Shown piece by piece: positions 6,943 to 27,255 of a stretch of DNA of 54,140 bases; the stretch's first letter is position 1; each line of letters begins with the position of its first letter. The stretch covers positions 1-54,140 of the forward strand of contig CAZQLQ010000006.1 in the NCBI GenBank assembly GCA_964594415.1, read 5' to 3'. Under the pieces are notes generated by a model. The model was not told where the DNA came from and did not search any database. It saw only the letters and a program-made list of their open reading frames with translations. The position numbers were made by a program, and so were the translations under genes. Source of the stretch: an uncultured Candidatus Saccharibacteria bacterium. GTDB lineage: Bacteria; Patescibacteriota; CPR2; UBA1875; CAIMLA01.

Positions 6943-7386
6943 TTATTCTTTAGATAAAGGGGTGTGAGTACGTAGGTTAACAATTATTTGAATAATTAAA
7001 AGTCCGAGCATTATCGCACCCCCCATTTGGGAGTAGTACCTCCAAGTCATTATCACAAATCCATAATTCATCGCGTAGTACAAAAATAAGTACGGTGTTA
7101 CTTGTTTCCAATATTTCTTCATATTTTCACGGAAAGGAATTTTCCATACATAGTCATAAAGATACTCCAGAGCTAGAAATGCCAAGAATATACCCAAAAA
7201 GATACTATATCGCACCGATTGCTGTTCCTGCTGAACCAAAAATATTCCATAGATAGCCGGGATTGCCAAAATGAAATAGAGTTTCCCAACCCGTTGTAAA
7301 ATAGTCATATTCTTTCGAATCAAAAAGATGAATATTAAATATAGATTATTTATTAACCCTAGAATGAAAAATAATTCTTCTAACAT
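6943..7386 (-). CDS. Hypothetical membrane protein (leaderless)
   Basis: 147 aa, about 4-5 TM; TATAAT lies 6 nt upstream of the ATG. Confidence 0.75.
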   Translation of the reverse strand: MLEELFFILGLINNLYLIFIFLIRKNMTILQRVGKLYFILAIPAIYGIFLVQQEQQSVRYSIFLGIFLAFLALEYLYDYVWKIPFRENMKKYWKQVTPYLFLYYAMNYGFVIMTWRYYSQMGGAIMLGLLIIQIIVNLRTHTPLSKE

Positions 7387-9401: not shown

Positions 9402-9497
9402 TGGTGGACCCTACAGGACTCGAACCTGCCACCTCCTCGGTGCAAACGAGGCGCTCCCCGCCCGTACCGAACGGTACGTTCGGGCGGGTACCAGATG
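9402..9497 (-). pseudogene. 3' part of the outer (split) tRNA-Ala(TGC): D-loop with 32-nt insert, anticodon arm, T arm, acceptor 3' strand and CCA
   Basis: Reverse complement catctggta[32 nt]gagcgcctcgtttgcaccgaggaggtggcaggttcgagtcctgtagggtccacca; lacks nt 1-12. Confidence 0.9.
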
Positions 9498-9501
9498 GAC
9501 T

Positions 9502-9631
9502 TAATAAAATAGAGTTTGCTGAATAATTGGTGGACCTGACAGGACTCGAACCTGCTACCTCCTCGGTGCAAACGAGGCGCTCTACCAGGTGAGCTACAGG
9601 CCCGCGTTATTCAGCAAACTCTATTTTATTA
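9502..9631. repeat. Perfect 25-bp inverted repeat (9502-9526 / 9607-9631) enclosing tRNA-Ala
   Basis: taataaaatagagtttgctgaataa and its exact reverse complement. Confidence 0.95.
9528..9603 (-). tRNA. tRNA-Ala(TGC), intact inner copy
   Basis: 76-nt cloverleaf, G3:U70, anticodon loop TT-TGC-AC, encoded CCA. Confidence 0.97.
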
Positions 9632-9635
9632 TCAG

Positions 9636-9878
9636 TTATTCTTCGATAATTTTGTTTATAAACCTTCTACCAGCCGCCGATTTAAAGTACTTTTCTCTAA
9701 TCAGCGCCTCGTTCAAAGTTTCAACTTTTTCATAGTATTTAATTTTTAATTTACCCTTCATTTTAGAAGTAGTTTTTGTGTGACCTCCGTTATGCTCCTG
9801 CAACCTTCTTTTGAGATTGTTTGTGTATCCTTTATATAAGGTGCCGATTTCGTCTTCTAAGATATATACGTAATACAT
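9636..9878 (-). CDS. Small stand-alone GIY-YIG endonuclease (YhbQ/UPF0213-like)
   Basis: YYVYIL...LYKGYT-NL-RRL-EHN...YYE...EA-IREKYFKS; conserved Y/R/H/E residues present. Confidence 0.92.
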   Translation of the reverse strand: MYYVYILEDEIGTLYKGYTNNLKRRLQEHNGGHTKTTSKMKGKLKIKYYEKVETLNEALIREKYFKSAAGRRFINKIIEE

Positions 9879-9901
9879 GCTTGATATTTTACCACAACCT
9901 T

Positions 9902-9962
9902 AGGCGCTCCCCGCCCGTACCGAACGGTACGTTCGGGCGGGTACCAGATGAGCTAAGGGCCC
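9902..9962 (-). pseudogene. 5' part of the outer (split) tRNA-Ala: acceptor 5' strand and D arm with 32-nt insert
   Basis: gggcccttagctcatctggta[32 nt]gagcgcct; acceptor gggccct pairs perfectly with agggtcc of the 9402 piece; 9902-9950 is identical to 9449-9497. Confidence 0.9.
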
Positions 9963-10169
9963 TCATCGAAATCCGCTGTCAAGCTTCTTAAATAGCTTTC
10001 ACTATTTATTTCGCTTTTACGCGATTTCTCCTCTTCCCCTAAAAATCTACGATTTTTGGGGACCCCACAGAAACGAACTAAATTTCAAAAAATTCTTAAA
10101 ACCTTTTTGTACTTTCGCAACGCTTCCTTTTTCGCAAAAATTTATAATTTTTTGCGAGATGACTTATGT

Positions 10170-10198
10170 ATTTTACTCTTTTAAAAGGATTTTTTCAA
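10170..10198 (-). promoter_or_regulatory. Sigma70 promoter upstream of the split tRNA-Ala/GIY-YIG unit
   Basis: TTGAAA-17-TAAAAT. Confidence 0.6.
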
Positions 10199-10204
10199 GC
10201 TAGA

Positions 10205-10453
10205 TTACATTGCCCCAAGAGAACCGAGTAATCCGTCATAGATGTAATCAGCAACGCCAATCATCACCAGAATAGAGACAATAATCATTAGTGTGCCGAG
10301 AATTCTATAAAAAGTATAGGTCCCTGCCGGGCCAAGGTATTCCTCCGCAAATCCTATGCGAAAAGTATTATCAACAATTTGATGCGTATACGCAACAAAG
10401 CTTGTTCCGAGTGCTATACCAATAATCCCAAAGATAAACTTTCCTATTGTCAT
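10205..10453 (-). CDS. Conserved small 2-TM protein (AEEYLGPAGTY motif)
   Basis: 82 aa, SD aggagg; family recognised as common in CPR genomes (from memory). Confidence 0.75.
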   Translation of the reverse strand: MTIGKFIFGIIGIALGTSFVAYTHQIVDNTFRIGFAEEYLGPAGTYTFYRILGTLMIIVSILVMIGVADYIYDGLLGSLGAM

Positions 10454-10578
10454 ACCCCTCCTGTTGAATTAGTTTACCCGTCGAGAAAATTTCTAATTTT
10501 CTCGATAAAGGAGGAAACGCGATAAGTTGCAGTAATTTTATTATTTAAAATTATGAAACCTGCCAGCAGTTTCCGACG

Positions 10579-10655
10579 TGGTGGGCGATCGAGGACTTGA
10601 ACCTCGGACCTCGTCATTATCAGTGACGCGCTCTAACCACCTGAGCTAATCGCCC
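10579..10655 (-). tRNA. tRNA-Ile(GAT)
   Basis: 77-nt cloverleaf, anticodon arm cgtca-CTGATAA-tgacg, encoded CCA. Confidence 0.97.
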
Positions 10656-10680
10656 GTGAAATCAATTTTCAACACATAAT

Positions 10681-10709
10681 ATTTTACCAAATAAAGGGCA
10701 ATATTTCAA
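10681..10709 (-). promoter_or_regulatory. Sigma70 promoter of tRNA-Ile
   Basis: TTGAAA-17-TAAAAT about 25 nt upstream of the tRNA. Confidence 0.65.
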
Positions 10710-10765
10710 CAAGTAAGTGAGATGTACAAAAAGTCCATCGAAAGTAATATAAGGTTTAAGATGGA

Positions 10766-11230
10766 GCAGTTCTCACATTCGTTCGAACAATAAACCCCTT
10801 GAAAAACTGTTCGTCCCGAGGACCGACTATTTTAAAAAGAAGTTCAGTTTTTCTTGAACTTTGCATCACTTTCTTTCAAGAGAAAGTGAGAAAAGAAATT
10901 AGATTCTTCGACTTCGCTCAGAATGACACTATTTTGTCATCCTGAGGGAGCGGAGCGATTCGAAGGATCTAGAGATCCCTCGACAGGCTCTCCGACGGAG
11001 TCCGACACGAACTCATCGGAGTCGTCGGACGGGATGACATAGGGAAGGAGTGGATCCCTGGAATGACGCCAGGGATGACCACAGCACTATAAAAAAGTGC
11101 TGGGCGAAGCAGAGAAATAGGTAGATCCCCGCGTGCGCGAGGATGACATAGGGAAGGAGTGGATCCCTGGAATGACGCCAGGGATGACAAAAAACATTAT
11201 AAAAGTAGTTCTCTGATTCGCCTCGAACAT
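10766..11230. repeat. Second mosaic cluster of REP-like palindromes
   Basis: Same units as 1-470; direct repeat of about 40 nt (catagggaaggagtggatccctggaatgacgccagggatgac) at ~11038 and ~11146; 10795-10839 matches 54087-54131 with one mismatch. Confidence 0.9.
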
Positions 11231-11264
11231 GATTGGCATTGTAAAGATGCGGGGGTAAACAATT

Positions 11265-11293
11265 AAAAAACTCCACACAAGGCGGAGTTTTTT
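11265..11293 (-). terminator. Bidirectional-type terminator just downstream of the 16S processing stem
   Basis: aaaaaactcc-acacaaggc-ggagtttttt. Confidence 0.7.
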
Positions 11294-11297
11294 CGGC

Positions 11298-12938
<1,641 letters not shown>

Positions 12939-13840: not shown

Positions 13841-15742
13841 TTATTTTTTGTTTTTACCGTTTCCGTTGCCGCCCTTTTTCTCGATCGTTACAACAGGCTC
13901 TTCTTCCTCTTCAGGTTTTTGTACCCAGAAAAGATACCCGCCTAGTGCTAGAAGGAAAATTAAAGCGATGATCCCCCAGGTAGGGAATTCTTTTTCGTCG
14001 CTTTCATTGTCCTCTCCGTCTATAGGAGCAGTGGTATCGGTTGTACTGTCAGCTTTTACTTCTCCAGTTACCTCAGTCGTATCCCCTTCGCTGGCATTAA
14101 CAACCTCACTTGTTGAAGCACTGCCAGAATAATAAGAATAAGAGTAAGTAACAGGTTTTGCCGCAGGAACAGAAATATAAACAGGCATTGTTGTGGTTTC
14201 ATTCCCAGCTGCATCAACAACAATAATCTGATATGAATAGGTCTTCCCCTTTAATACTGTACCGTCCTCAAAATAATTTACTTTTCCTGGATTAAAAGTA
14301 ACAGTTTCTGAACCTGACTTCCTGATTATTTTTATGTGATCAAAAGTCGCAGCGTCTGGATTTGTCCAACTGATTATGACGCTATTGCTAGTTTGTGAAT
14401 ACCTAATTACTAAATTGTTAGCTGCACTAGGCGCCTTGGTATCAATAGTTAGCTCTTCATCGTAAGTAGCTTTGTTCCCATAGACGTCTTCCGTGTCCAA
14501 AACTACGTCATGCAGTCCTTCTTCCAAAACATCAGCGATTTCAATAGTCCAAGTATTACCATTTATTGTAGCTTCGCCACCTATATCCTCACCGTCAATA
14601 GTAATCCACAGTGTAGCTTCCGGATCATCAATAGTTCCTGAAAGAATTGGGCTTGTACTATTAACAGCCTTGGTGACCAAAGCTGCTTTAGGAGCCGTAT
14701 CGTCAATTTTTATCGTTTGAATCTTTGAACTTTTTCCGATTATTTTTGAAGCGTCTATGTCGAATAATATATAGCTTATCTCATAGATTCCACCTTTTAT
14801 AATGTTCATTTCCTCAAAGACTATTTCTAAACCGTTTTTTATTTCTTCTTTTTCTGAAGAAAAATCTTCTGGGTTTTCTGGATATCCGATTACCAAAACG
14901 CTTGCATCGGTGATAGCAAGATCAGCTAGCTCTTCGCTGGTCGCAAGCAACTCATCAGCCTCATCACCATCAATCATTATATCTGCAGGATTGATAGCTG
15001 CTTTATCTTTTCTGGAAATTAGAGTATAAATCTTTGCCTCATCGTTACTGACATCATCATAAAGATTGCCTTTGATAGTTACCGTATCATCAAAAGATTC
15101 AGTAGCCCCATATATGGCTTCGGGAGTGGTTCCCGTAACGTCTAGGCTAGTTTCCGCAATTGTGATAACTTGAGAAACAAGGCTTTGTCCAATTTTTACA
15201 AAACCCTCTTCTACGTCATCTAAATCGGGACCAGAATATACATAATACGAGACACTATATACACCTTTTTTTGCAAAGGTTAATTTGCCTGAGTCTAGGT
15301 AGCCAAGGCCTTCTATGTCATCTTTCTTTGAATCTAACGAAAATCCATCGTCATTACCAAAAGCAATAACTAGGTCGTCAGAATCTACCAAAGCTTTTTG
15401 TTCGCTGTCTGATGATAAAACCTCTACCCCATCAGCTTCTAGATTTGTCGAGTCAATTGCAACAGGATTGGAAGGAACAGTCACATCCTTAATAACTCCA
15501 TAAATCCTAGCATCGTTTTCCTCAACATCCTCAAAAACCGTTCCCTGAACTTTCACTCCGAATTCAAATTCGGTATTGAGCCCTTGAATCAAACTGTTTC
15601 CCTCAATTGATGGAGTTACAGTCAAATTCGTCGTTGTTATAGGGGCCGAAGCATAAGCGCTACCGACACCTAGAAATGCTAATTGCATAACCAAAAGAAC
15701 ATTTGTAGCAATAGCAATTTTTCGCATTATCCCTTTTAACAT
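13841..15742 (-). CDS. Surface protein: signal peptide, duplicated acidic domain, Ig-like, FN3, S/T linker, C-terminal TM
   Basis: DDTAP..SPILSGTIDD (Ig-like), SWTNP...YSYQIIVVDAAGN (FN3), TM FPTWGIIALIFLLALGGYLFW. Confidence 0.85.
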   Translation of the reverse strand: MLKGIMRKIAIATNVLLVMQLAFLGVGSAYASAPITTTNLTVTPSIEGNSLIQGLNTEFEFGVKVQGTVFEDVEENDARIYGVIKDVTVPSNPVAIDSTNLEADGVEVLSSDSEQKALVDSDDLVIAFGNDDGFSLDSKKDDIEGLGYLDSGKLTFAKKGVYSVSYYVYSGPDLDDVEEGFVKIGQSLVSQVITIAETSLDVTGTTPEAIYGATESFDDTVTIKGNLYDDVSNDEAKIYTLISRKDKAAINPADIMIDGDEADELLATSEELADLAITDASVLVIGYPENPEDFSSEKEEIKNGLEIVFEEMNIIKGGIYEISYILFDIDASKIIGKSSKIQTIKIDDTAPKAALVTKAVNSTSPILSGTIDDPEATLWITIDGEDIGGEATINGNTWTIEIADVLEEGLHDVVLDTEDVYGNKATYDEELTIDTKAPSAANNLVIRYSQTSNSVIISWTNPDAATFDHIKIIRKSGSETVTFNPGKVNYFEDGTVLKGKTYSYQIIVVDAAGNETTTMPVYISVPAAKPVTYSYSYYSGSASTSEVVNASEGDTTEVTGEVKADSTTDTTAPIDGEDNESDEKEFPTWGIIALIFLLALGGYLFWVQKPEEEEEPVVTIEKKGGNGNGKNKK

Positions 15743-15967
15743 TTTTCCTCCTTTTATCTTTGAATCCTTAAGTTATTCTGAGAAAAGTTGAAGAATCTTT
15801 GAAATACTTCAATAAATCCAGTATAACTTTTTTTATAAACTTTCTAATACTAATAGACAATTAATGATTTGTTTTGTTTTTATTATTTATTTATTTCGGA
15901 AATAGACAAACTAAAAACCGAACACCCTCCCTCCAAGTTGTATATTTTTTGACAATAAAAACTTCGA

Positions 15968-16068
15968 GGAACTGTGATCGGTTTCACCACTTGCTATTTC
16001 CCATAGGCACTTGTGAACAACCGAGTCCAACAACAGTATCGCACCCATAAGTCAAAGCAATCACTTCC
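15968..16068 (-). ncRNA. Candidate c-di-GMP-II-like riboswitch (variant), leader of the 633-aa surface protein
   Basis: P1 ggaa-gtga/tcac-ttcc, P2 tgct/agca, TGA/GGA K-turn-like element, P3, loop tcggt..ttcac complementary to 3' gtgaa-accga. Confidence 0.55.
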
Positions 16069-16168
16069 TTATATAGATATATAGATTTGTGATTAAAATT
16101 TGTTTTTGTTTTGCTCAGGTTTTGTTTTTATTTCTGTACCCCTTGTTTCCAAAAGGTTTGTAAAATTG

Positions 16169-16196
16169 ATTATAACAACATTACAGATTATGTCAA
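16169..16196 (-). promoter_or_regulatory. Sigma70 promoter upstream of leader A
   Basis: TTGACA-16-(TG)TATAAT. Confidence 0.7.
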
Positions 16197-16264
16197 CATT
16201 CAAAACCAACTATATTTATAGAAACTGCTATCAGCTTAAACAAAAATCGGTTGGGCGAAAAGAA

Positions 16265-16432
16265 CTAGTCCTTTTTAAAAAACTTTGTTTTTGCCGTACT
16301 ATAAACTTCCCCGCCTTTCTTATAAGCCTTTCTTGGAACAGTAGAAACAGAGGAAAGCAGATTCTTTGCCTTATAGACAACAAACCTAACAGACTCTTTT
16401 CTTGATCTGTTTTCAGATGATTTTCTATCCAT
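16265..16432 (-). CDS. Putative 55-aa basic peptide (below the ORF-track cutoff)
   Basis: AAGGAGG SD, ATG, MDRKSSENRSRK...KFFKKD. Confidence 0.4.
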   Translation of the reverse strand: MDRKSSENRSRKESVRFVVYKAKNLLSSVSTVPRKAYKKGGEVYSTAKTKFFKKD

Positions 16433-16612
16433 AGGTGCCTCCTTCTTTGTTAGTTTGCTTGCTTTTATTTTACCAAGTAGCTGATAAATAACAACTAGAC
16501 AAAATTTTGTTTATTTCGTATCAGTTTTAAATACTTTTATTTTTCTAACGCAGTGTGAAGTTCTCAAGATTAATAGTTCTCGTAATCACTCAATCGGTAA
16601 TCTCTATTTTAA

Positions 16613-16632
16613 AAGGGGCCTTACGGCCCCTT
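16613..16632 (-). terminator. GC-rich hairpin after the InlB-repeat gene
   Basis: aaggggcc-gtaa-ggcccctt followed by tt. Confidence 0.7.
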
Positions 16633-16638
16633 AAGTTT

Positions 16639-18837
16639 TTATTTCTTGTTCTCTTCTTCATCTGTAAACAACCAGTAGATTGCTGTAAGAATCAGTATTG
16701 CCAATGGAACAATCGCCCAATACCATTTACAGAATATAGTGTCTTCATACCCGTCGTGTAGATATTTATGAATCAACCAAGCTGCTAAACCAAACACTAC
16801 AGGCCAGGCATATAGAAGTTTAGCTTTTCTTTCCTTGTTGTGTTCATATCCATAGTATACAGAAGTACCAGCAACAAGGATTAATAGAATAATCCACCAC
16901 CAAGGACAAGCTCCTTTATCTTCTGTAGCCGTACCCTTGACCTCCTCTGCCTTCGTAGTTGTAGTAGTCTGAGGAATTGTTGTAGTAGTTGTGGTGGTAG
17001 TTGTGGTAGCGCTAGTTACACCTGTCGTACCAGCCACTCCAGTAGCAATTACTATTGGAGTAATTGGGGTAGATGGGCTAGTCGTAGGCGTAGTAACTAA
17101 TCTCCACTGAGCAACCAACGTTTTCCCGCCTAATGGCATCGTAGATGGAAATGCCGGAGACCATCCAGTAAATATATAGCCAGGCCTTGTTGGATTTGCT
17201 GGAGCAGAAATACTTGAGCCATAGTCAGCAGTAATTGGAGCAATTTCCGAACCCCCATTTGTGTCGAAGTAGATAGTATATTTGTTCGCTATCCATTTAG
17301 CGTACAGCGTCATATTGCTTTCTACGTCATCGTTAAAGTCCCAGGCGCTTGTAAGCGCCGAGTCAGAATACCAACCGTCAAAAGTGTAGCCTGGTTTTGT
17401 TGGATCTGTTGGCTCTATAATCTCATCTCCATCTTCTACTTGCTGGCTGTCAACAGGAGTTCCACCGTTTGAATTGAATATCACCGTATATGCTTCCTTG
17501 ACCCATTTTGCGTATAGATCGGTCTCGCCTGTTACTCTCATAGTTGAGAAGTTCCATGGTTGCGCAAAAGTATTGTCGTCCAGATACCAGCCAGAAAAAA
17601 CATAGTGATTTCTTGTCGGATCTGTAGGCTTTGTAATCAATTCGTTATATATAACATCCATATCGTCTATATGCGTTCCGCCGTTTGAATGAAAATCAAC
17701 CTCATAAGTATTTATCTGCCACTGCGCGTAAAGAGTGACGTCTTGCGACATTGTTATTTCATCGCCTTCAGAATATGTAGTACCGGTCCCGTCGGCTTTT
17801 GTATTCCAGTCATTAAACGTATAACCGGTTTTATATAGTCCTGCATCATTGCCATAGACTTCAATCTCTGTGCCATAGTCATATGTCCTGTTTGAGTCAG
17901 GAACAAGACCGCCAGTATTTCCATTACCATTATAGGCAAGAATGTACCTATTGAGGCCCCATTTTGCGTATAACGTTGTATTCGCATTTACTACGTCAGT
18001 AGTAAAGTTCCAATCATCAGTACAACAAGCATCCTTGTACCATCCGATAAAGTAATAATTAACTTTTGTTGGATCTGTAGGTTTTGTAATTGTGTTTCCA
18101 TATTGAACATTCGTGATAGGAGATACGCTACTTCCTCCTTTAGAGTCAAAGGTTACAGTATAAGTGGCTTTAGCGGCTGCGTTGACATATATATTATCAA
18201 TGCTATTATAACCATCATTATTTATTGTTCCACTTCCTGCTGCCCTATGATTGCTAGAAATCTGCCATCTTAAAATCACTTTAGCCTGATTGTCTAATGC
18301 TGAAGGGAGTGTAAGATTATTCAATGCCCCGCTGTTGTTCCAGCTTGCATTAGTAATTTGATAATCACTTCCGCTCACCTTTGTCCATGTGCTTCCATTA
18401 TTTAGGCTGTAATCGATATGAAAGTCTCTAGGACCATCATTTTCACTTCTTTGCTTTGATGACAAAGTCAAAGTTTTATAGCCGGTTGTGCTAAACTCAA
18501 TATACCAATAATTAGCGTTATATCCGCTATTGTAGTCCCAATCTTTTGCTGCCGCTGCTTTGTCAGTGCCTGAATCGATACCATTCGAATCATACCTTTC
18601 CCCACTCAAATGATCGCCTTCTAGTTCACTAATTCCAACATTTGCTGCAATACCAACATCCGCATATTTATCCGCTGAACCACTTGGGAAAGTCCAACCG
18701 ACTATTGTAGTTGTCGGAACTACTGCAAACGCTGGTGTAACGCCAAGAAAAAATAAATTTAAGACCAAAAGCGTTGACGTCACCACTGCAAAAATATCTT
18801 GCATCCTTTCTTTTAGATTTTTCGTCCTTACCCTCAT
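16639..18837 (-). CDS. Surface protein with 5 InlB B-repeat (Listeria-Bacteroides repeat) domains, T-rich linker and 3-TM C-terminal anchor
   Basis: Repeats Y-x-V-x-F-x-S-N-GG...P-T-K...F-x-GWY...LYAKW; N-terminal signal peptide. Confidence 0.9.
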   Translation of the reverse strand: MRVRTKNLKERMQDIFAVVTSTLLVLNLFFLGVTPAFAVVPTTTIVGWTFPSGSADKYADVGIAANVGISELEGDHLSGERYDSNGIDSGTDKAAAAKDWDYNSGYNANYWYIEFSTTGYKTLTLSSKQRSENDGPRDFHIDYSLNNGSTWTKVSGSDYQITNASWNNSGALNNLTLPSALDNQAKVILRWQISSNHRAAGSGTINNDGYNSIDNIYVNAAAKATYTVTFDSKGGSSVSPITNVQYGNTITKPTDPTKVNYYFIGWYKDACCTDDWNFTTDVVNANTTLYAKWGLNRYILAYNGNGNTGGLVPDSNRTYDYGTEIEVYGNDAGLYKTGYTFNDWNTKADGTGTTYSEGDEITMSQDVTLYAQWQINTYEVDFHSNGGTHIDDMDVIYNELITKPTDPTRNHYVFSGWYLDDNTFAQPWNFSTMRVTGETDLYAKWVKEAYTVIFNSNGGTPVDSQQVEDGDEIIEPTDPTKPGYTFDGWYSDSALTSAWDFNDDVESNMTLYAKWIANKYTIYFDTNGGSEIAPITADYGSSISAPANPTRPGYIFTGWSPAFPSTMPLGGKTLVAQWRLVTTPTTSPSTPITPIVIATGVAGTTGVTSATTTTTTTTTTIPQTTTTTKAEEVKGTATEDKGACPWWWIILLILVAGTSVYYGYEHNKERKAKLLYAWPVVFGLAAWLIHKYLHDGYEDTIFCKWYWAIVPLAILILTAIYWLFTDEEENKK

Positions 18838-19135
18838 ATATCCCCCTTTCCTTTCCCCTCCTGCTTAATATTCTATAAATCAACTATTATCTATTAAATA
18901 AATAAAATTATTTTGAGATCTTGAAAAAGTGATAGAAAATTCGTGTATATCAAAAAATAACAGAATTTCTGTGCATTCCGCTCCTATATAAGCTCAATAT
19001 TCAGGTTTTTAGTATTTGTGAGAGCTTATGATTCGAAGCAGTCACGATATAAAAAGTATATAATTCCAATGTAAAACATTTTGCTTTTTTGTTTTTATTT
19101 CTGAAACCCTCGACAAATTCCGAAGGATATGGCCT

Positions 19136-19164
19136 GATAATACACCTAAGACCAAAAAAAGTCA
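19136..19164 (-). promoter_or_regulatory. Sigma70 promoter giving a 5' leader of about 290 nt for 16639-18837
   Basis: TTGACT-17-TATTAT. Confidence 0.55.
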
Positions 19165-19179
19165 ATAATAAAGGAAAAA

Positions 19180-19908
19180 TCAATACCCTGGGGTCGGATC
19201 GATCCTTTCAATAAAATCAGCTGAGGTGTCTGAATCGGTCCCCAAATGTTCTCTTTCTAATGAGTGACCTTCATCCACATCAATACATGCCGGGTCAAAT
19301 ATCTCAGTATCGTCTCCATAGCTAATTTGATCCACTATATCGCCTTTATCGTCCCTGAGTATCACCCGATCTCCGCTGTTGCTCATTCGATCATGACTAC
19401 CCGAAAGATTTATCTTTACAACGTTATCTTCTGTTATATTTTCCCAAAAATGCCAAGTATCATTACCATGGGATAAAAGTGCAAAGCCATAAGCCGGTAT
19501 TTCGACATTTGAATTTATAATGCTTGGCCATGAATCGCCCGAAATAGACCATTTTTTCAAGCTTATTGCAACTCCTGTCGGGTTATAGAGTTCAACCCAT
19601 TCATTATCATCCTCCCTTTCAAATCTAGAGCAATCATTATCATTAAAGATTCGGCACCCGGTATCGTAATAAACCTCGTTGATAAGCACTTGCAGCTCTG
19701 GCAATTCATTTTCTCCGGTGGTGATAATGTTATTTGAAATCGTTGCCGTATCAGAGAAGTAACTTCCAGTGGAACCAATAGTAACAGCAGCCGTAATCAA
19801 AATAATATAAAGGCATTTAAAAATATTTTTCAAATTATTTTTAGTAGAGTAACTCATTCTTTTCTTTTGTTTCGCTTTTCTCTTTCTTTTTTGTCTTAAT
19901 TTTTTCAA
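19180..19908 (-). CDS. Lamin-tail-domain protein with SipW-class signal peptide (true start probably 19857)
   Basis: GSTGSYFSD signal motif; LINEVYYD...EWVELYNP...GDRVIL...VDQISYG (LTD). Confidence 0.85.
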   Translation of the reverse strand: MKKLRQKRKRKAKQKKRMSYSTKNNLKNIFKCLYIILITAAVTIGSTGSYFSDTATISNNIITTGENELPELQVLINEVYYDTGCRIFNDNDCSRFEREDDNEWVELYNPTGVAISLKKWSISGDSWPSIINSNVEIPAYGFALLSHGNDTWHFWENITEDNVVKINLSGSHDRMSNSGDRVILRDDKGDIVDQISYGDDTEIFDPACIDVDEGHSLEREHLGTDSDTSADFIERIDPTPGY

Positions 19909-20404
19909 GCTCTTTTTTGATTTTCCCTATTTCTCCATAAATAATAATAAGAGCTGGGATAAGAATAAATAGGACAAGACCCTTTGGCGTCTTTAGGAAT
20001 GATACCGCATTGCCGATATAAGGAACGCTATAAACTACTTTTCCAATTACGTTCTCTTTAATTACTTTTTCTGAGTCAGCAGATTTATTGGCATCACCTT
20101 TGACAATATAAAAGGTTGTATCTCTTTCTTGCTCAATACCTACAATTCTATGAGTAACCGTATCTGTTTCGTTTGATATCTTAAAAGTAATAATGTCGTT
20201 TATGCTATAAACATCCTGCTTTCTGTCCAAAACTACACTGTCCTTGCTGAACTCGGGTTCCATACTTCCAGATCTCACCACAAACATTCTATAACCGCTA
20301 ATTTCAAAAGAAGAAAAAATAACAAGCAATGCCATAATAGCCAATAAAATATAGGCGATAAAGCTTACTGTATTTACTAATATTGAACCCTTTTTAATTG
20401 CCAT
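19841..20404 (-). CDS. sipW: Signal peptidase I, SipW type
   Basis: VRSGSMEP, TVTHRIV (Ser-His type), VKGDAN, GKVVYSVPYIG. Confidence 0.88.
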   Translation of the reverse strand: MAIKKGSILVNTVSFIAYILLAIMALLVIFSSFEISGYRMFVVRSGSMEPEFSKDSVVLDRKQDVYSINDIITFKISNETDTVTHRIVGIEQERDTTFYIVKGDANKSADSEKVIKENVIGKVVYSVPYIGNAVSFLKTPKGLVLFILIPALIIIYGEIGKIKKELEKIKTKKKEKSETKEKNELLY

Positions 20405-20436
20405 TTTGCTGTTTTCTCCTCTTTTATTTTTATTAT

Positions 20437-20468
20437 TATACAGCAGGGTGTTAAGGCCCTGCTGTATA
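20437..20468. other. Strong intergenic hairpin between the tasA-like gene and sipW (no minus-strand U-tract)
   Basis: tatacagcaggg-tgttaagg-ccctgctgtata. Confidence 0.75.
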
Positions 20469-20478
20469 AATACGCGAA

Positions 20479-21411
20479 TTAGGATTTGATATAATCGACA
20501 AGCCCTGTTTCAAACAAATAATCAGCTGGGTGCCAACCGATCATTTGACTACCATTGAAGTCGCTTGACTTTACTAACCATATCTTAGCATTTGAGAAGC
20601 TACCAAGATTTTGATCGAAGGTGATTGTCAGACTTCCTCCACTTGAAACACCAGTATTTAGCAAGACAGATCCTGCACCTGGCCAAGGATCATTATATTT
20701 GATCAGGGAGTAATCTCCGGCTGGCAAACCTGTTGCTGTGAATGTTCCCTTGAAGGTAGAATCCATTACCCCGTAAGATAGGGTTCCCTTGATGCCATCC
20801 TGAATAACATCCCAATTCGGCTCCCCTGTTTTATTCTCCAATACTAGGTTACCGCTTAGCTGCTCACCCATTATCTCAATATTAAACACTAGGGTTTTGT
20901 CCTGATAAGTATTATCAGCGGTATCCTTCATCTTGTAACTTTCAGTAACATACATTACATAATTTTCGGTATTAGTATCAGCAGGAAGCATTCCTAAAAA
21001 CACTTTTGAATTATTAACGCCGTTTAAAGTTACATCGTAGTTATAGATTGCTTGTTTCCAGTAAAAAATGCCGTTCTTTTTGATCTCTACCGATAGACCA
21101 TAAAGTATTTGCGTACTCAAGTTGCCAACATCATTTGGAATAATCACTTTCTTAGTTATGTTGGCGGGATTGCTTCCGTTTGCATTATCTACTTTAAGGT
21201 TGCCGTACTTTACATAGCCCGGCTTCATATCAGTCAAATAGAACGGATTCAAAACGTCACTTCCCTCATCGTTAACTACAATATCCAATGTCCCAGTTGA
21301 CAATGTATTCCCGTTTATTTCAGCCGTGTCGCTAAAAAGTGCTCCGGTTGCACTAATCGACAACGCAGCTACTGAAGCAATAGTAAACAAACTCATTAAA
21401 ATTCGTTTCAT
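20479..21411 (-). CDS. TasA/CalY (camelysin)-like protein with SipW-class signal peptide
   Basis: MKRILMSLFTIASVAALSISATGALFSDTAEINGNTLSTGTLDI, MKPG motif; start refined to the ATG after SD aaaggtgg. Confidence 0.85.
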   Translation of the reverse strand: MKRILMSLFTIASVAALSISATGALFSDTAEINGNTLSTGTLDIVVNDEGSDVLNPFYLTDMKPGYVKYGNLKVDNANGSNPANITKKVIIPNDVGNLSTQILYGLSVEIKKNGIFYWKQAIYNYDVTLNGVNNSKVFLGMLPADTNTENYVMYVTESYKMKDTADNTYQDKTLVFNIEIMGEQLSGNLVLENKTGEPNWDVIQDGIKGTLSYGVMDSTFKGTFTATGLPAGDYSLIKYNDPWPGAGSVLLNTGVSSGGSLTITFDQNLGSFSNAKIWLVKSSDFNGSQMIGWHPADYLFETGLVDYIKS

Positions 21412-21531
21412 ATTACCACCTTTCTTTTTTAAAATTAATAAATCGTTTTTGGCTTCTGTTTCAAAGCTGTCGACCATAGCTTGCCCTCAAAACAAAAACC
21501 GATCAGATTCTCTCCAGATTTAAAATATCTC

Positions 21532-21640
21532 GAGAAAATGTGACCGGTTTCATTTATATCCGTAGAAATAATTACTTACTCCACAAGAACAACTGCAATT
21601 TGCAACCTTACATTCATTGCATCAATTTTTACACATTCTC
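21532..21640 (-). ncRNA. Possible degenerate c-di-GMP-II-like leader of the tasA-like operon
   Basis: TGC-AAT-GA / GGA-GTA-AGTA core and 3' TGAAACCGG, P1 gagaatgtg/cacattttctc; pseudoknot partner poor. Confidence 0.35.
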
Positions 21641-21743
21641 TTTTTTAGTTTTTTAGCTATTTGTATTTTGATGTTATACCTAAAATTTTACCTTGTCAAT
21701 GGCAAAAAATGATGAATTTAGCAAATTTGTATAAACAATTTTC

Positions 21744-22052
21744 TTATTGGCAACTCTCTGGTCTAAAGATAAAAAAAGGGGTGCTGTCTGTAGACAGCAC
21801 CCATATTGGTACACCTATTTTAATTAATCTTTTTACTTGTTTGAATTTTTCTATTTCTTGTTTTTCTTTTTTTATCATATTTACTTTTTTCCTGAAGCTC
21901 CGCTCAACAGGATTGGGGTAATTTGCCACCAGCCTTTTAGGCTGAATCTCTTTAAAGCATTTCCTGCATATTTGGAACCCCTTTTTTGTTGTTTTGATTT
22001 GTTCCCCACAAATCCCGCAATAGTTCTTCATCCTTTTATCCGCTTTAGCCAC
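21744..22052 (-). CDS. Small Zn-finger hypothetical protein
   Basis: CGIC...CRKC; SD aggagggg, GTG start. Confidence 0.5.
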   Translation of the reverse strand: MAKADKRMKNYCGICGEQIKTTKKGFQICRKCFKEIQPKRLVANYPNPVERSFRKKVNMIKKEKQEIEKFKQVKRLIKIGVPIWVLSTDSTPFFIFRPESCQ

Positions 22053-22289
22053 AAAACCCCTCCTTTAAAGGAATAATTTAATGGAAAACGAAAGCCAGTT
22101 CTCCTTTTGTCGGGATTGGTGGGAAATTACAACTATTTTTCCTTGAAGTTTGAGTAGCAAACCAGCGGATAACTGCATAGCGCTTTTTGTCCTTCATATT
22201 GTCACGAAATCTACTTCCCGCTGATTTTATTTCGTTGGCTTCATTATGATACAAAAGACCACCTCAATTCAATTATTTACAGTTTGACA

Positions 22290-22580
22290 TTAGAGTATGA
22301 CTCTTAATACTCTTGGTTCCTCTCCATGCGTACGCTGAACCCCTATTTCTTCATTTATCAAGCTAGCCATACTTGGACTTTTTGGAACCACTGCATTGCA
22401 ATGAGGACACCTACTGTGCTTACTGGGAGATGATTTTGAATTATGACTACGACCACAGTTAGAACATTCAAACCTATAATGCTTCATGAACCCTTTTTCT
22501 AAATCTTTTGCCCAAGACACAATTCCTACTCCTTTTAAATCTAGCGGACACAATACAAAAGCTCTTACCCAGGATACCAA
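22290..22580 (-). CDS. Small Zn-ribbon hypothetical protein
   Basis: CSNC...CPHC. Confidence 0.5.
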   Translation of the reverse strand: MVSWVRAFVLCPLDLKGVGIVSWAKDLEKGFMKHYRFECSNCGRSHNSKSSPSKHSRCPHCNAVVPKSPSMASLINEEIGVQRTHGEEPRVLRVIL

Positions 22581-22670
22581 TCTCTGCCAGTAAGATTCAC
22601 AACATCCCTCCTTAATAAGTAGACTCCGCTATTCGCCCTCCTTTCACCCGAAAACAACAAGTGAGAAATT

Positions 22671-22886
22671 TCAATAATCCAACATTGCATCCTCGATCGG
22701 ACGTAGATCCTTAAACAATTTGGACGCTACAATCGGTGGTTTAACTAGAGCCCTAGACCTAGCTTTTGAAATTGCCTCTTTGATAATCAAAGTACTTGAA
22801 TCAATATAAACTGGGCCTAGATTCAGCGATTTAAGCACTAAATTTAATTGATCAAAAAGTTCTTGATCCAAGGGTATCCCCTCCAA
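22671..22886 (-). CDS. Hypothetical protein
   Basis: 71-aa ORF co-oriented with neighbours; no recognised motif. Confidence 0.35.
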   Translation of the reverse strand: MEGIPLDQELFDQLNLVLKSLNLGPVYIDSSTLIIKEAISKARSRALVKPPIVASKLFKDLRPIEDAMLDY

Positions 22887-23030
22887 CCAGATTCTCTGAG
22901 TAAATAGGACCTAGCCATAATCCCCTTCAAAAAAAAGCATAAGCACCACCCCCTCACTAATTATCAATGTTCAATAAATAAAGCTAACGCTAAATTAAAA
23001 CTAACACTCATGAAAAACCATGTCAATAAA

Positions 23031-23059
23031 AAATAAGCGGGAGGGTGAACCGCTTATTT
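23031..23059 (-). terminator. Terminator after the NTG-repeat operon
   Basis: aaataagcgg-loop-ccgcttattt followed by a T-run on the minus strand. Confidence 0.75.
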
Positions 23060-23086
23060 CTTATCATATATAATGACTAATAACTT

Positions 23087-23986
23087 CTATACGGCCTTAT
23101 GTATCTTTTGCTGATGTCTTACTCTGATTGCATAGAAAGCAAGGTAGGCAATAACAATTTCTGCAATTATTACCTTGTCATACCCTTCGGCAAACCAGCC
23201 TATTCCTGTGCCATAGTGAGCAATCGTATGAACTATCCATGCTAAATATCCAAAAACTGCAGGCCATAAATACCAGAGACCCAAAATACCTTTTGGATTT
23301 TCTGTTCTAGATAGATAAAATCCGTATCCTCCTAGAAGAACTGCTAGTGCAATAACTATTGCGATACACCAAGGACAATTTTGCTCATCCCCTATCAGAA
23401 CATTTCCAGTATCAGCTCCTTTAATATCCTCGCTTCCTAAAGCGATTATCTCATTATCAGTACTTTCATTGTCTGACTCAGCAAGAGTTTGCTCAACTCC
23501 GTCAGATCTGTATGTTGCTACAAAACTACCGGAATACCCGCTAGTATGGATATTCACGCCACCGCCACTAGTTGTAATCTTTATCGTGCCACCCGAGGGA
23601 GAAGTAATTACAGTAGTTTTGGGGTTTGTGGTAGTTGTAGTAGTAGTTTCATTGTCATTGTCGCCGTCTTCGCTATTTATAGAACAATAATTGACTTCGT
23701 TAGTAACACTTAGAGAAACGTCAATATCTCCGGTTTTTACGCTGCCATCACCGGTATTTCCGTTTGCAGTATTTTCTCCAGTACTTATCTTAAGATCGAT
23801 TTCATTATCAATTGCTGCGTTATTTTCAACCTCTATCTTAGTTCCATTTTCTACAGAAATAATTGTTTTATTTACTGAGTTATAGCCTGTAATCTCATTT
23901 GAGATGTCAGCCGCCAGAGCAACCCCCCCTACCAGAAATACAGCAAAAATTGGGATAATTAATATTTTTTTACGTTTTGTTTTCAT
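23087..23986 (-). CDS. NTG-repeat protein 3: signal peptide, 1 repeat, T-rich linker, 3-TM anchor
   Basis: ISNEITGYNSVN...STGENTANGNTGDGSVKTGD; C-terminus homologous to that of 16639-18837. Confidence 0.8.
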   Translation of the reverse strand: MKTKRKKILIIPIFAVFLVGGVALAADISNEITGYNSVNKTIISVENGTKIEVENNAAIDNEIDLKISTGENTANGNTGDGSVKTGDIDVSLSVTNEVNYCSINSEDGDNDNETTTTTTTNPKTTVITSPSGGTIKITTSGGGVNIHTSGYSGSFVATYRSDGVEQTLAESDNESTDNEIIALGSEDIKGADTGNVLIGDEQNCPWCIAIVIALAVLLGGYGFYLSRTENPKGILGLWYLWPAVFGYLAWIVHTIAHYGTGIGWFAEGYDKVIIAEIVIAYLAFYAIRVRHQQKIHKAV

Positions 23987-24044
23987 GGCAGCCTCCTTTC
24001 TAATAGGTGACCCTCACTACGGCGCCAACTTTTTATGACCCATT

Positions 24045-26213
24045 TTATGCTCCACTTTTCTTTTTTTTGCCAAAATAAACTGAAAGAAACGAAAGATAAA
24101 CTATTGTCAGAAACGCCAGAATTTGCATCTTGAATTTACCCAGCATAGACAAAAAGTTGTTAGAATCGTTTGTCTGACTAATCGTATTAACACCAAGAAC
24201 GCTACTTCCTCCATCCTGGTTGCTGTTGCTTGATGCCAGAAGAACTGCATTGTTATCATTATCAGGTAATATATTTTCTAACGCTATTGATCCGTCTACA
24301 GGAACCTTCACACCTGCCGAAGTGAATATTTTAAACACACTTGAGTCAACTGGTTCAGTAGAAATATGGATTTCTGTAGGAATTTGGGTAATCACTTGCG
24401 TTGTTGCAGTAGTTTGCGCTACCTCTTTTTCTACATCTATGTTTCCATCCCAGTCCCCAAAGATATTTACTACCAGGAATACGAACTTTTTAGCCACTAC
24501 ATTAACATTCATAATGTTTGCGATGTTGGCAAGTACATTAGAGTCACCTGTTGTTATATTCCCGTTTCCGGTATTATAGTCTGCCTTGTTATCGCCGGTG
24601 TTTGCAGTGATTGAAATATTATTAGACAAAACTCCTTCATTTTCGTTGTCTATATCAATTAAGCTTGATGCATCTACCGTTGCCGTATTTTCTGACTCGG
24701 CTCCGGTATTTTCGTTAGAAGCTGCAAGGTTGCAAACATTTTCACTATCACAACCGTTATTTACTATCCCTAGATAAGGAGACAGGAGATTTTCTCCTGA
24801 CCATTGACCCGCTACATTTACTATGAAGAAAAATATAGTATCTCCTATCAAGTTTTGATTTAAAAGGTTGCTTACACTCAATTCCGTGTTTACGTCACCA
24901 GTTTGGACCGAACCACTACCAGTATTATATCCGCTTGTGTTATCACCTGTATTATTAGCAATCTTAATATTATTTAAGACTTCTGCATTATTATCGTTAT
25001 CGATATCTAGTGCATTATTTACGTTCGCTGAAGATATATTACTCGAATCAAATCCTGTGTTTTCATTACCTGCAGTTATCGCACCACCGCTATTATTTGA
25101 ATTAATCGAATTCCCTGCCAGGCTTTTTGGTATCAATAAGTCCCCTAGCCAATCCCCAAAAATGTTTAATACGCCAACAACCCCAAGATCAGAAGCAGTA
25201 AAGGAGCTGTTAATGAAATTTAACAAGTTCAGCGATACATTAGAGTCACCAGTAGTTACGTTGCCGTCGCCTGTATTGTAACTGGCGTCATTATCGCCTG
25301 TATTTGATTCGATATTAAAATTATTTGAAGCGTTCGCATCATTATCGTTATTCACAAACGTTGAGTTGTTAGTATTGATAATGGCCGAGTTAGTAGATTC
25401 GGCACCTGTATTTTCGTTTTCTGCACCAACCCTACTACCAGTCAAGGTATATTTTTCACCAGAATTAGGGTCAACGAGATAATTACCAAATAGATTCCCT
25501 GCAACATTTTCAAAAAGGAGTTTTATCTCTCCACCAGGGAGTGCAACAAAAGCGGTATTAATCATATTTAGAATAGAGAGAATTATATTTGAATCCCCTG
25601 TCTTCACGCTTCCGCTACCCGTATTGTAGTTGGCATCGTTATCTCCGGTATTTGAAGAAACAACAAGGCCATTATTTACTTCCGCCTGATTATCGTTATT
25701 TACCACTAGTTTGCTAGCATCCAATACAACCGCCTCGTTCACTGAACCCGCTCCAGTATTTTCGTTACTAACGCCAGACTCTGTTGATTCGGATCCGCTT
25801 CCTTCAGCTAAAGTAGGAATAGTTTGTCCCGACTCAGCTCCCAGATCTCCCGCAACCTCTTCATTTAGAGGACAGGACTCTGATGGATTAGCGGTAGACG
25901 AACCAGTATCTGCCGTAGGAGCCGTATTTTCGGTAGGATTGCTTGTACCCTGGGTATCGCCGGTAGTTCCCGAATTTGTTTCCTCGCTCCCAGGCAAAGC
26001 AGGAGCTGTTGGCGAGACTGGAGTCTCAGGTGCTGTCGGAGCTACTATGACTTTCGGGGTAGTAGTTGGCGTAGTCGGTAATGCTGGACGGACTGGAGCC
26101 GCAGGCAATTGAGGAGCCTCCGAGAAGGCAAGACCTAAAGGAGCCACAACTAACAAAACAGTCACAAAAGCTGTGCCTAATCTTTTTAATCTTATTAATA
26201 ATCTTGTATTCAT
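24045..26213 (-). CDS. NTG-repeat protein 2: signal peptide, P/T-rich region, 4 repeats, C-terminal TM
   Basis: Four copies of NENTG-x-x-S-x-N...NTGDN-x-x-x-YNTG-x-G-x-V-x-TGD. Confidence 0.85.
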   Translation of the reverse strand: MNTRLLIRLKRLGTAFVTVLLVVAPLGLAFSEAPQLPAAPVRPALPTTPTTTPKVIVAPTAPETPVSPTAPALPGSEETNSGTTGDTQGTSNPTENTAPTADTGSSTANPSESCPLNEEVAGDLGAESGQTIPTLAEGSGSESTESGVSNENTGAGSVNEAVVLDASKLVVNNDNQAEVNNGLVVSSNTGDNDANYNTGSGSVKTGDSNIILSILNMINTAFVALPGGEIKLLFENVAGNLFGNYLVDPNSGEKYTLTGSRVGAENENTGAESTNSAIINTNNSTFVNNDNDANASNNFNIESNTGDNDASYNTGDGNVTTGDSNVSLNLLNFINSSFTASDLGVVGVLNIFGDWLGDLLIPKSLAGNSINSNNSGGAITAGNENTGFDSSNISSANVNNALDIDNDNNAEVLNNIKIANNTGDNTSGYNTGSGSVQTGDVNTELSVSNLLNQNLIGDTIFFFIVNVAGQWSGENLLSPYLGIVNNGCDSENVCNLAASNENTGAESENTATVDASSLIDIDNENEGVLSNNISITANTGDNKADYNTGNGNITTGDSNVLANIANIMNVNVVAKKFVFLVVNIFGDWDGNIDVEKEVAQTTATTQVITQIPTEIHISTEPVDSSVFKIFTSAGVKVPVDGSIALENILPDNDNNAVLLASSNSNQDGGSSVLGVNTISQTNDSNNFLSMLGKFKMQILAFLTIVYLSFLSVYFGKKKKSGA

Positions 26214-26240
26214 TTAGACCCCCAATTAATTTATCTGGCG

Positions 26241-26268
26241 CTGGTAAGGCTCAATTGAGCCTTACCAG
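26241..26268. repeat. Perfect 28-bp palindrome between NTG genes 1 and 2
   Basis: ctggtaaggctcaattgagccttaccag. Confidence 0.9.
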
Positions 26269-26281
26269 ACCTAATCAAATA

Positions 26282-26872: not shown

Positions 26873-27034
26873 TTCATTCACCTCCCTTCTTAAATAACTT
26901 TACCTAATCAGTTAGGAGAAATAAGATGAAGGATAATTCCTCAAAATAGTTCGCCCAACTGCCGACCGTACATTTTAGCGGAGATTTTAAAAACCGACCA
27001 TATATCTAGACGTGGTGTTACAGAGTAACTGTTA

Positions 27035-27157
27035 GAAACAAGTCGGTTTCACTATTTGCGCTTCTCTATTTTGGAGTCCTCAGTGCTAGATCTTGTGACC
27101 AATCCCTTCTGAAAAGTTTGAGTTACATAAGCCCTGAGTCAAAGGCGCCCTTATTCC
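27035..27157 (-). ncRNA. Candidate c-di-GMP-II-like riboswitch (variant), leader of the NTG operon
   Basis: P1 ggaataag/cttgtttc, P2 gcgc/gcgc, TGA/GGA, P3 ctcag/ctgag, loop TTGG-TCAC complementary to 3' GTGA-AA-CCGA. Confidence 0.65.
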
Positions 27158-27225
27158 ATATTATTAAATTTTCGAATTTCGGCTTTCATTAGTATTTTTG
27201 TTTTGGTTTTTGTCTCCTTACGAAC

Positions 27226-27255
27226 ATTATAGATACAAAAAAATCCCTATGTCAA
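27226..27255 (-). promoter_or_regulatory. Sigma70 promoter upstream of leader B
   Basis: TTGACA-18-TATAAT. Confidence 0.65.

Follow-up and report, generated by a model that had tools for sequence, protein, structure and literature searches.

A candidate riboswitch family with a class II c-di-GMP-like fold ahead of surface-protein genes in Patescibacteria

Is the 101-nt structured element ahead of a surface-protein gene in a Patescibacteria contig a class II riboswitch for cyclic di-GMP (c-di-GMP), and does a non-canonical base in its ligand-binding region change what it senses? The element lies on the minus strand of a 54-kb stretch of DNA (54,140 nt, hereafter the window) from an uncultured Candidatus Saccharibacteria bacterium (contig CAZQLQ010000006.1). 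A sequence-only reading had described it as a c-di-GMP-II-like leader (leader A), sharing short blocks with a second such copy in the window (leader B), and had proposed that its ligand specificity may differ because the base joining paired regions P1 and P2 (J1/2) is U. We tested these claims and found that leader A very probably is a riboswitch of class II fold working as a terminator-based ON switch. Its most likely ligand, judged from sequence comparison, is c-di-GMP.

The element occupies exactly positions 15968-16068, with the two strands of P1 forming its ends. The consensus promoter upstream, the Ig/FN3 surface gene downstream and the U at J1/2 were also as the sequence-only reading had them (Table 1). 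The blocks TTTGAC, TCACAAG and GCAARTRGTGAAACCGA are common to leaders A and B, the first two in the same order. The window has precisely two copies of GCAARTRGTGAAACCGA, at 15978-15994 and 27043-27059 on the minus strand, compared with 0.04 copies expected by chance; two copies were seen in 0 of 100 shuffles. An A-rich leader of ~90 nt separates the promoter from the element. Folding energy did not set the 101-nt aptamer apart (z = -1.05), so thermodynamics alone is unremarkable, and the stability of the full leader (z = -3.78, with 0 of 200 shuffles equally stable) is due to its terminator. Support for the structure comes from comparative evidence and not from the thermodynamics of a single sequence.

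At gathering thresholds, Rfam returned only 16S rRNA and tRNAs for the whole window. With permissive filters, leader A aligned to the full model of c-di-GMP-II-GAG (RF03169, clan CL00127) over 15967-16069 with 18.9 bits (E 0.63; gathering score 40), and leader B matched c-di-GMP-II (RF01786) with 17.7 bits (gathering score 53.5). Homologues from related contigs (given L-numbers, with suffix letters for individual aptamer copies) scored against c-di-GMP-II at 26.6 (L005a), 23.4 (L005b), 19.6 (L012), 24.5 (L033a) and 18.4 bits (L039c and L039d). In leaders A and B and in each of these homologues, the clan matches were full-length and in the same register. By the Rfam criterion the copies are not members, and standard annotation overlooks every one; the recurrence of full-length, same-register matches in independently diverged copies is, on sequence grounds, not chance-like. 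The c-di-GMP-II-like label thus held for architecture, which these clan matches and a 22-member alignment support, but not for Rfam membership, and the Infernal comparison with c-di-GMP-II and its variants that had been proposed as a check gave full-length covariance-model similarity, but below gathering throughout. No other Rfam family fits the leaders, and c-di-GMP-I / GEMM-I gave no match at E <= 10 around leader A or B. A weak c-di-AMP (cyclic di-AMP) riboswitch match in L039 (19431-19559; 22.2 vs 38 bits) lies inside an open reading frame (ORF) and was set aside.

The comparison rests on 22 aptamers parsed from 14 Patescibacteria contigs, which is a lower bound (at least 22 copies); homologues were drawn from L005, L012, L016, L020 and L027-L039. 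Two collection-wide pattern scans yielded five true homologues (L005, L012, L016, L020 and L027) amid chance matches. For genome contigs, a three-block DNA pattern gave 15 matches, of which 13 arose by chance, about as estimated; the real ones were L005 and L012, both contigs of Patescibacteria metagenome-assembled genomes (MAGs). In metagenomes, where the pattern permitted GTG[A/C]AACCG, 3 of 12 matches were real. Protein homology with the regulated proteins gave two homologues for the leader B protein and one for the leader A protein, and the contigs of these rare homologues bear orthologous leaders (L028-L031). Synteny with GyrA, which has many Patescibacterial relatives, gave L032-L040 with many further copies. 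The datasets that carry the leader A sequence are DNA metagenomes only.

We found strong covariation across this set. In the core alignment (A2; 20 distinct sequences, 441 cells, 23 pairs), variable loops were excised and the core was hand-aligned with N padding, a register that MAFFT preserved. Paired cells made up 94.6% of the alignment compared with 80.0% in shuffles and 35-46% in slid-partner controls, although these percentages are inflated by registers chosen by hand to suit the structure. Where invariant flanks anchor a helix, changes to both partners of a pair depend less on this choice; two-sided changes were seen in 14 of the 23 pairs, and the covariation score was 0.465 vs 0.209. 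On none of these measures, the percentage paired included, did any of 500 shuffles reach the observed value. On the same inflated scale, P1, P2 and P2b were 92.5, 90.1 and 95.0% paired; 13 of their 16 pairs changed on both sides, including 4/4 counted pairs of P1, 4/5 of P2 and, across subtypes, 5 of the first 7 of P2b. The P1, P2 and P2b sequences are wholly different between subtypes, as P2b illustrates (CUUAUGG:CUAUGGG, CUCGUUG:CAACGAG, CCCAUUA:UGGUGGG and CUUACAG:CUGUGAG). The pseudoknot segments were 98.3% and 97.5% paired. Here, GUG:CAC became GCG:CGC in L035B, pair 42-66 (columns 29-49) being AU in 19 sequences and GC in that one, and the outer pair 37-73 (columns 24-57) was UG in 12, CG in 5 and UA in 2; GG and CAC of the loop are essentially invariant. 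The six closest relatives fit the fold and are too alike to reveal covariation. Hence, covariation across 22 copies from 14 contigs, with a constant Rfam register, indicates that the structure is genuine.

These data also bear on whether the leaders are ordinary structured 5' untranslated regions that resemble class II by chance. The Rfam E-values of individual copies (0.011-9) and the single-sequence z-score are what such a resemblance would give, but 22 copies in 14 contigs covary strongly, the Rfam register is equal across independent subtypes, the shared motif occurs twice in the window against an expectation of 0.04, and both the terminator coupling and the class of gene are conserved. 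Chance resemblance is effectively refuted, and we regard it as barely credible.

The copies fall into three architectural subtypes. In the A-type (11 members, including leader A), an internal loop replaces the third helix; the 6 B-type members, leader B among them, have a three-way junction created by a hairpin between P2b and P2; the D-type (3 members) has a loop, UAUAUUUGGUCACCUU, close to the canonical UgUAUuUGGGCACuU. The remaining members are a tandem pair, L039a and L039b. All were compared with the canonical class II switch (RF01786; structure 3Q3Z, from Clostridium acetobutylicum), whose Rfam consensus reads P1, A, ggC, gaUGAa, P2b, UgUAUuUGGGCACuU, P2b', gGA, Gcc, AGUgGUGCAACCGg, P1'. 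The order of elements is alike: P1, a one-base J1/2, P2, a bulged xxUGA, the P2b hairpin with loop UGGNCAC, the tail A-R-U-R-GUG-N-AA-CCG-N and P1', with identical pseudoknot topology. P1, P2 and P2b (P3) nest in the canonical order, in registers fitted by hand, and the loop ([U/C]GG..UCAC) pairs with the tail (GUGA-AA-CCG).

The leaders depart from the canonical switch in the detail of these parts. A-type loops have an insert of 1-4 nt between GG(U) and (U)CAC, and the P2b loop of leader A is 30 nt long and contains CGGU-ugu-UCAC; P2b itself is 98.5% paired among A-type members. A kink-turn (K-turn) is suggested by the three-nt bulge followed by G-A beside the P2b (non-canonical, NC) helix. 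In B- and D-type copies, G-A comes directly after the P2b 3' strand and is followed by an inserted hairpin before the P2 strand, which we take to be k-junction-like. Where class II has gGA on the non-bulged strand, A-type copies have A-A-A-U-A, so that the predicted second G.A pair would be A.A; in leader A, AAAUA (15999-15995) faces UUUGA, and its K-turn would be non-standard. A local hairpin inside leader A (CUAU-GGGAA-AUAG) was considered and rejected; L012 and L038a carry a U->C change in it that is uncompensated. Canonical class II switches are known mostly from Firmicutes, for example Clostridia, whereas the hosts here are Patescibacteria. The comparison of sequences indicates that the family is a Patescibacteria-specific variant of the class II c-di-GMP-like riboswitch with three architectural subtypes, and our literature search found no earlier report of it.

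We next consider the ligand pocket. In 3Q3Z, c-di-GMP contacts A13, A14, U37, G39, U60, A61, C68, A69, A70, C71, C72, G73 and A74, a list that we took from a review (PMC7288161). With the Rfam consensus numbered so that the A of J1/2 is 13, its base equals that of the contact list at 9/13 positions; positions 14, 60 and 74 are variable in the consensus, and there the crystallised RNA departs from it. The assignment of U37 is a best fit that needs one insert column of the alignment display to be counted. G38, G39, A61, U63, A69, C71 and C72 are invariant in 22/22 copies, position 70 is A in 21, position 73 is G in 19, and position 37 is U in 15 and C in 7. Contacts U37, G39, A61, A69, A70, C71, C72 and G73 are therefore found in the family, which retains 8 of the 10 class II contacts that are defined by sequence.

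Position 68 differs. The tail had been described as GUG-x-AACCG with x free, but x is A in every one of the 22 copies, at the position of the canonical contact C68 (PMC7288161), and the change is compensated by G40->U. Position 40 is U in 20/22 and A in 2/22, so that the canonical G40-C68 pair has become U-A family-wide, giving GUGAAACCG. Two pseudoknot registers are possible, with the U before CAC pairing with A68 or the U after GG pairing with A70, and each has two exceptions. No C68 version (GTGC) from this clade was present among the metagenome pattern matches, even though the pattern GTG[A/C]AACCG permitted it. By this alignment, the sole systematic departure from class II is the compensated replacement of G-C by U-A in the pair adjoining the pocket. 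Tail positions 67-69 read GAA; the canonical class has GCA there, and the Rfam variant families have GAG or GCG.

J1/2 is not conserved. It is A in 10 copies, U in 7, G in 2, UA in one (L035B) and absent from 2, and it flips between close orthologues: L012 and L005a have A in place of the U of leader A, and an A in L028B and L032B corresponds to the G of leader B. Since J1/2 varies among members, even between orthologues, its U is no signature of a new specificity, and the altered specificity that the sequence-only reading had drawn from it is weakly founded. The U of leader A is an individual variant at a poorly constrained position and not a family trait.

Two A-type copies would be informative natural mutants, with a canonical ligand-contact position altered or displaced. 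L033b (L033 17322-17432; P1 AUGA:UCAU) has the tail GUGAAGACCGG with a 1-nt G insertion, and L038a (L038 14305-14418) has the tail GUGAAGCCGG, in which A70 is G.

We favor c-di-GMP as the ligand because most of the pocket is retained, the one pair that differs has a compensating change, and the adhesion/surface class of gene fits. Diguanylate cyclase genes have been reported in MAGs of ultra-small and candidate phyla radiation (CPR) bacteria and are enriched in attached populations (PMC9938205). Several observations weigh against this assignment. No member reached the gathering score, the best having 26.6 bits vs 53.5 (range 17.7-26.6); C68, a canonical contact, is A in all copies; A13 is not conserved; the 3' strand of the A-type K-turn lacks the canonical GGA; the pairing percentages gain from hand-chosen registers; and GGDEF, EAL, HD-GYP and PilZ genes were unseen in the 54-kb window. 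A motif search of ~240 kb of related DNA revealed none of these genes either, with no credible match to GGDEF, EAL, HD-GYP or DAC motifs, which is weak evidence since that DNA is mostly one syntenic neighborhood. Taking both sides together, we hold it fairly probable that leader A is a class II-fold aptamer and terminator ON switch with c-di-GMP as its ligand.

The same fold and ON mechanism might instead serve another ligand, such as c-di-AMP, 3'3'-cyclic GMP-AMP (3'3'-cGAMP), pGpG or a different (cyclic) dinucleotide that these reduced genomes produce, the aptamer being retuned by its U40-A68 pair beside the pocket and by the relaxed J1/2. C68 and A13 are both c-di-GMP contacts (PMC7288161), the first replaced in 22/22 copies and the second unconstrained, and no c-di-GMP enzymes were seen in the window or in the ~240 kb scanned, as would suit such a change. 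Rfam also separates the GAG and GCG look-alikes, whose ligands no paper found in our literature search describes, by changes at 67-69, and c-di-GMP-II-GAG, the best Rfam match of leader A, has A68 in common with the family. However, the family does not belong with either variant. Its tail is GAA in 22/22, leader A scores 18.9 bits against the 40 of GAG, GCG is the best clan member for none of the matches listed, and both variants are set apart by G69 whereas the family has the canonical A69. The change at 68, compensated by G40->U, looks like a structural pair maintained and not a recognition base altered; G39, A61, A69, A70, C71, C72 and G73 are kept; the gene context is classic for c-di-GMP; and variation of J1/2 between near-identical orthologues points to neutrality, not retuning. 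We therefore consider an altered ligand unlikely. The proposal seems to us similarly doubtful in its specific form, in which the class II aptamer of the GAA family (U40-A68) has been retuned to a nucleotide signal other than c-di-GMP and controls a gyrA-adjacent surface/fibre island.

In leader A, the tail and the 3' strand of P1 also make up the 5' arm of the terminator (CCGAUCAC..UUCCUCGAAGUU), whose 3' arm (AACUUGGAGGGAGGGUGUUCGG) ends at 15918 and is followed by UUUUU at 15917-15913; the hairpin itself spans 15981-15918. In the minimum free energy structure of the full leader, the terminator displaces P1, while P2 and P2b persist. The tail and P1 3' strand (...ACCGGUCAC...) double as the terminator 5' arm in 20/22 copies, with GGUGAUCGG as 3' arm and then a U-tract. 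Hence, because this strand is shared with an intrinsic terminator, the design is that of an ON switch. Without ligand, the tail and P1 3' strand (CCGAUCAC...) would pair with the downstream GGUGUUCGG to form the intrinsic terminator (15981-15913), and transcription would halt ~170 nt ahead of the gene. With ligand, the pseudoknot and P1 would retain the strand, the terminator would be blocked, and the gene of the 633-aa Ig-like surface protein would be transcribed. Sequence, family, covariation and terminator overlap are direct results; the identity of the ligand, the tertiary contacts and switching to ON in living cells are predictions.

A terminator that shares its strand with P1 could also belong to a conserved attenuator on a class II-like scaffold, in which a protein, a small RNA or temperature, and no small molecule, decides the fold. 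In favor of this are Rfam scores that never reach threshold, relaxed constraint at some positions of the pocket, the unremarkable stability of the aptamer by itself, and a third leader in the window (leader C, below) that has lost the core but retains P1 and the terminator. Yet A61, U63, A69, A70 and the G-A of UUUGA have no pairing role and are invariant or almost so despite fully diverged helices. Such invariance is typical of a ligand pocket and tertiary core, and the conserved bases coincide with the class II contact list, so we judge an attenuator quite improbable.

Two further features touch the platform. The D-type copies L033c (~15778-15925) and L039c (~20050-20230) are followed by a free-standing terminator and do not use the tail itself; the 5' arm of that terminator (GACCGGCACC and GGUCCGUCACC, respectively) resembles the aptamer tail (AACCGGCC), and these copies may be either ON or OFF switches. 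Between the U-tract of the leader A terminator and the start codon lies a very AT-rich stretch of ~170 nt (15743-15912, minus strand), in which a second sequence weakly resembles a promoter (15909-15882, 9/12). A similar post-terminator stretch of leader B is kept by the orthologues of that leader (...ACGGUCGGCAGUUGGG...CUUCAUCUUAUUUC...), so that one more conserved element may lie ahead of the ribosome-binding site.

The genes downstream agree in kind. All 22 copies precede ORFs with signal-peptide-like N-termini, and the contexts are Ig-like/fn3 proteins, Listeria-Bacteroides repeat proteins (Flg_new) and cassettes of Peptidase_M73 (camelysin/TasA), S26 peptidase and lamin-tail-domain protein. 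The copies thus resemble class II switches as leaders of surface/adhesion genes with an expression platform. Four class II switches of Clostridium difficile are terminator-based ON switches of pilin and adhesin genes (PMC6366702); in Cdi-2-4 (pilA1) and in Cdi-2-1 and 2-3, c-di-GMP binding prevents an intrinsic terminator and activates genes for a pilin or for sortase-anchored adhesins (PMC6366702). Tandem copies are a likeness as well: two complete switches follow one another in L039, both equipped with a terminator, and class II switches, tandem ones included, have been reported upstream of surface anchor proteins (PMC9481103). Unlike the C. difficile switches, those described here come from another phylum, are known from sequence alone, and precede Ig-like/fn3 proteins, TasA/camelysin-like proteins with a SipW-like peptidase, and Listeria-Bacteroides repeat proteins.

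Leaders A, B and C lie within 12 kb of the window, and L039 has four copies. The three leaders of the window belong to an island of ~13 kb (~13841-27255) that codes for surface and secreted proteins and comes immediately after gyrB-gyrA, the GyrA gene being directly upstream of leader B. The synteny gyrB-gyrA-leader-secreted protein is kept in L032-L039, at 72-89% GyrA identity. The island also codes for a 732-aa Listeria-Bacteroides repeat protein (16639-18837) and for proteins of 722 and 299 aa with no Pfam match. In L032, the spacer between gyrA and leader B contains a near-perfect palindromic hairpin (7188-7256; TTTTACTACTTTTTCTTGATAAAAAGTAGTAGCAAAAA region), which is probably the gyrA terminator and which gave spurious miRNA-family matches on both strands (35.9 and 33.1 bits).

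Six A-type copies went into a covariance model (R1), which detected leader C at 24.7 bits (E 4e-5 to 2e-3). Leader C has in common with the A-type leaders P1 (GAGAAUGUG...UCACAUUUUCUC) and the terminator arm (CUGAUCGGUUUUU), and its tail is GGAUAUAAAUGAAACCGG; it looks like a decayed, degenerate switch. Downstream of it are genes for a secreted 310-aa protein, for a protein that weakly matches S26 (SipW-like) peptidases and for one with a lamin-tail domain. Counterparts of this cassette in L035 and L039 bear Peptidase_M73 (TasA/camelysin), and that of L039 comes with two intact tandem switches. In the ORF at 20479-21477, the called gene probably starts at an internal ATG (21411).

Elsewhere in the window, the gene of an 818-aa protein (34176-36632, minus strand), whose P-loop ATPase domain is HerA/TrwB/FtsK-like, adjoins that of a 683-aa protein with no Pfam match (32115-34166, minus strand). 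The pair sits between an L,D-transpeptidase gene and gyrB and is kept in relatives (DUF8128 and a faint TrwB_AAD_bind match). A 16S rRNA gene of ~1460 nt (11401-12860, minus strand) forms part of 9402-12860, in which it is followed by tRNA-Ile(GAU) (10579-10655) and tandem tRNA-Ala(UGC) genes (9528-9603 and 9402-9477), with spacers of ~0.75 and ~1 kb. No 23S rRNA was found anywhere in the window, HAD hydrolase genes coming next instead, and the 16S and 23S genes appear unlinked.

Table 1. Positions in the window of the parts of leaders A, B and C
Feature	Positions	Strand	Detail
Leader A, sigma-70-type promoter	16169..16196	-	12/12 match; TTGACA-16-TATAAT with TG extension
Leader A, promoter boxes	16196-16191; 16174-16169	-	-35 TTGACA; TG-extended -10 TATAAT
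Leader A, P1 5' strand	16061..16068	-	GGAAGUGA; pairs with 15977-15968
Leader A, J1/2 nucleotide	16060	-	U16060; canonical A13; U in both the Rfam and the structural alignment
Leader A, P2 5' strand	16057..16059	-	UGC; pairs with GCA 15994-15992
Leader A, K-turn-like bulged strand	16052..16056	-	UUUGA (canonical gaUGA); G and A invariant in 22/22
Leader A, P2b 5' strand	16041..16051	-	CUUAUGGGUGC; 11-bp helix with GUGCCUAUGGG 16010-16000
Leader A, pseudoknot 5' strand in P2b loop	16013..16023	-	CGG(U)-ugu-UCAC; canonical U37-G38-G39-G40-C41-A42-C43 = UGGGCAC
Leader A, 3' tail	15978..15991	-	AGUGGUGAAACCGA; pseudoknot 3' strand and ligand-contact positions; canonical A61...G73, N74 = AGUgGUGCAACCGg
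Leader A, P1 3' strand	15968..15977	-	UCAC-ag-UUCC; last base of element 15968
Leader A, intrinsic terminator	15913..15981	-	dG -24.7 kcal/mol
Leader A, regulated gene	13841..15742	-	633 aa; signal-peptide-like N-terminus; Big_13 and weak fn3 match
Leader B, aptamer	27037..27155	-	B-type, three-way junction; kept in orthologues L028/L029/L032 with consistent substitutions
Leader B, parts			P1 AAUAAG:CUUGUU; J1/2 G; UUUGAC; UUGGUCAC; extra hairpin; GCGC-A-AAUAGUGAAACCGA
Leader B, promoter	27255-27226	-	own promoter, 12/12 match
Leader B, terminator	26999-26994; 26993-26989	-	3' arm GGUCGG; U-tract
Leader C	21529..21646	-	homologous P1 and terminator; core without UUUGAC, UGGUCAC and GUG
Leader C, terminator	21550-21499; 21498-21494	-	hairpin; U-tract
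Leader C, promoter	~21697-21669	-	

Patescibacteria (CPR) are ultra-small and mostly episymbiotic, and to our knowledge almost nothing is known of their regulation. Here, one clade carries several class II-like aptamers per genome, ahead of secreted and surface genes clustered downstream of gyrA, among them TasA/camelysin-like fibre cassettes that include a signal peptidase of their own. In this family, nature has varied the class II pocket: C68->A is compensated, and A13 is dispensable. In the literature searched, riboswitches are mentioned for Patescibacteria only as a possible engineering tool (PMC11665869), and these short terminator-coupled ON switches might serve as native inducible elements there. 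If the retuned reading were true, the family would be a dedicated RNA sensor for host-attached, genome-reduced bacteria. Should c-di-GMP prove to be the ligand, control of attachment by a second messenger would extend into the CPR, and the family would offer a handle on how CPR cells choose adhesion to hosts or to sediment.

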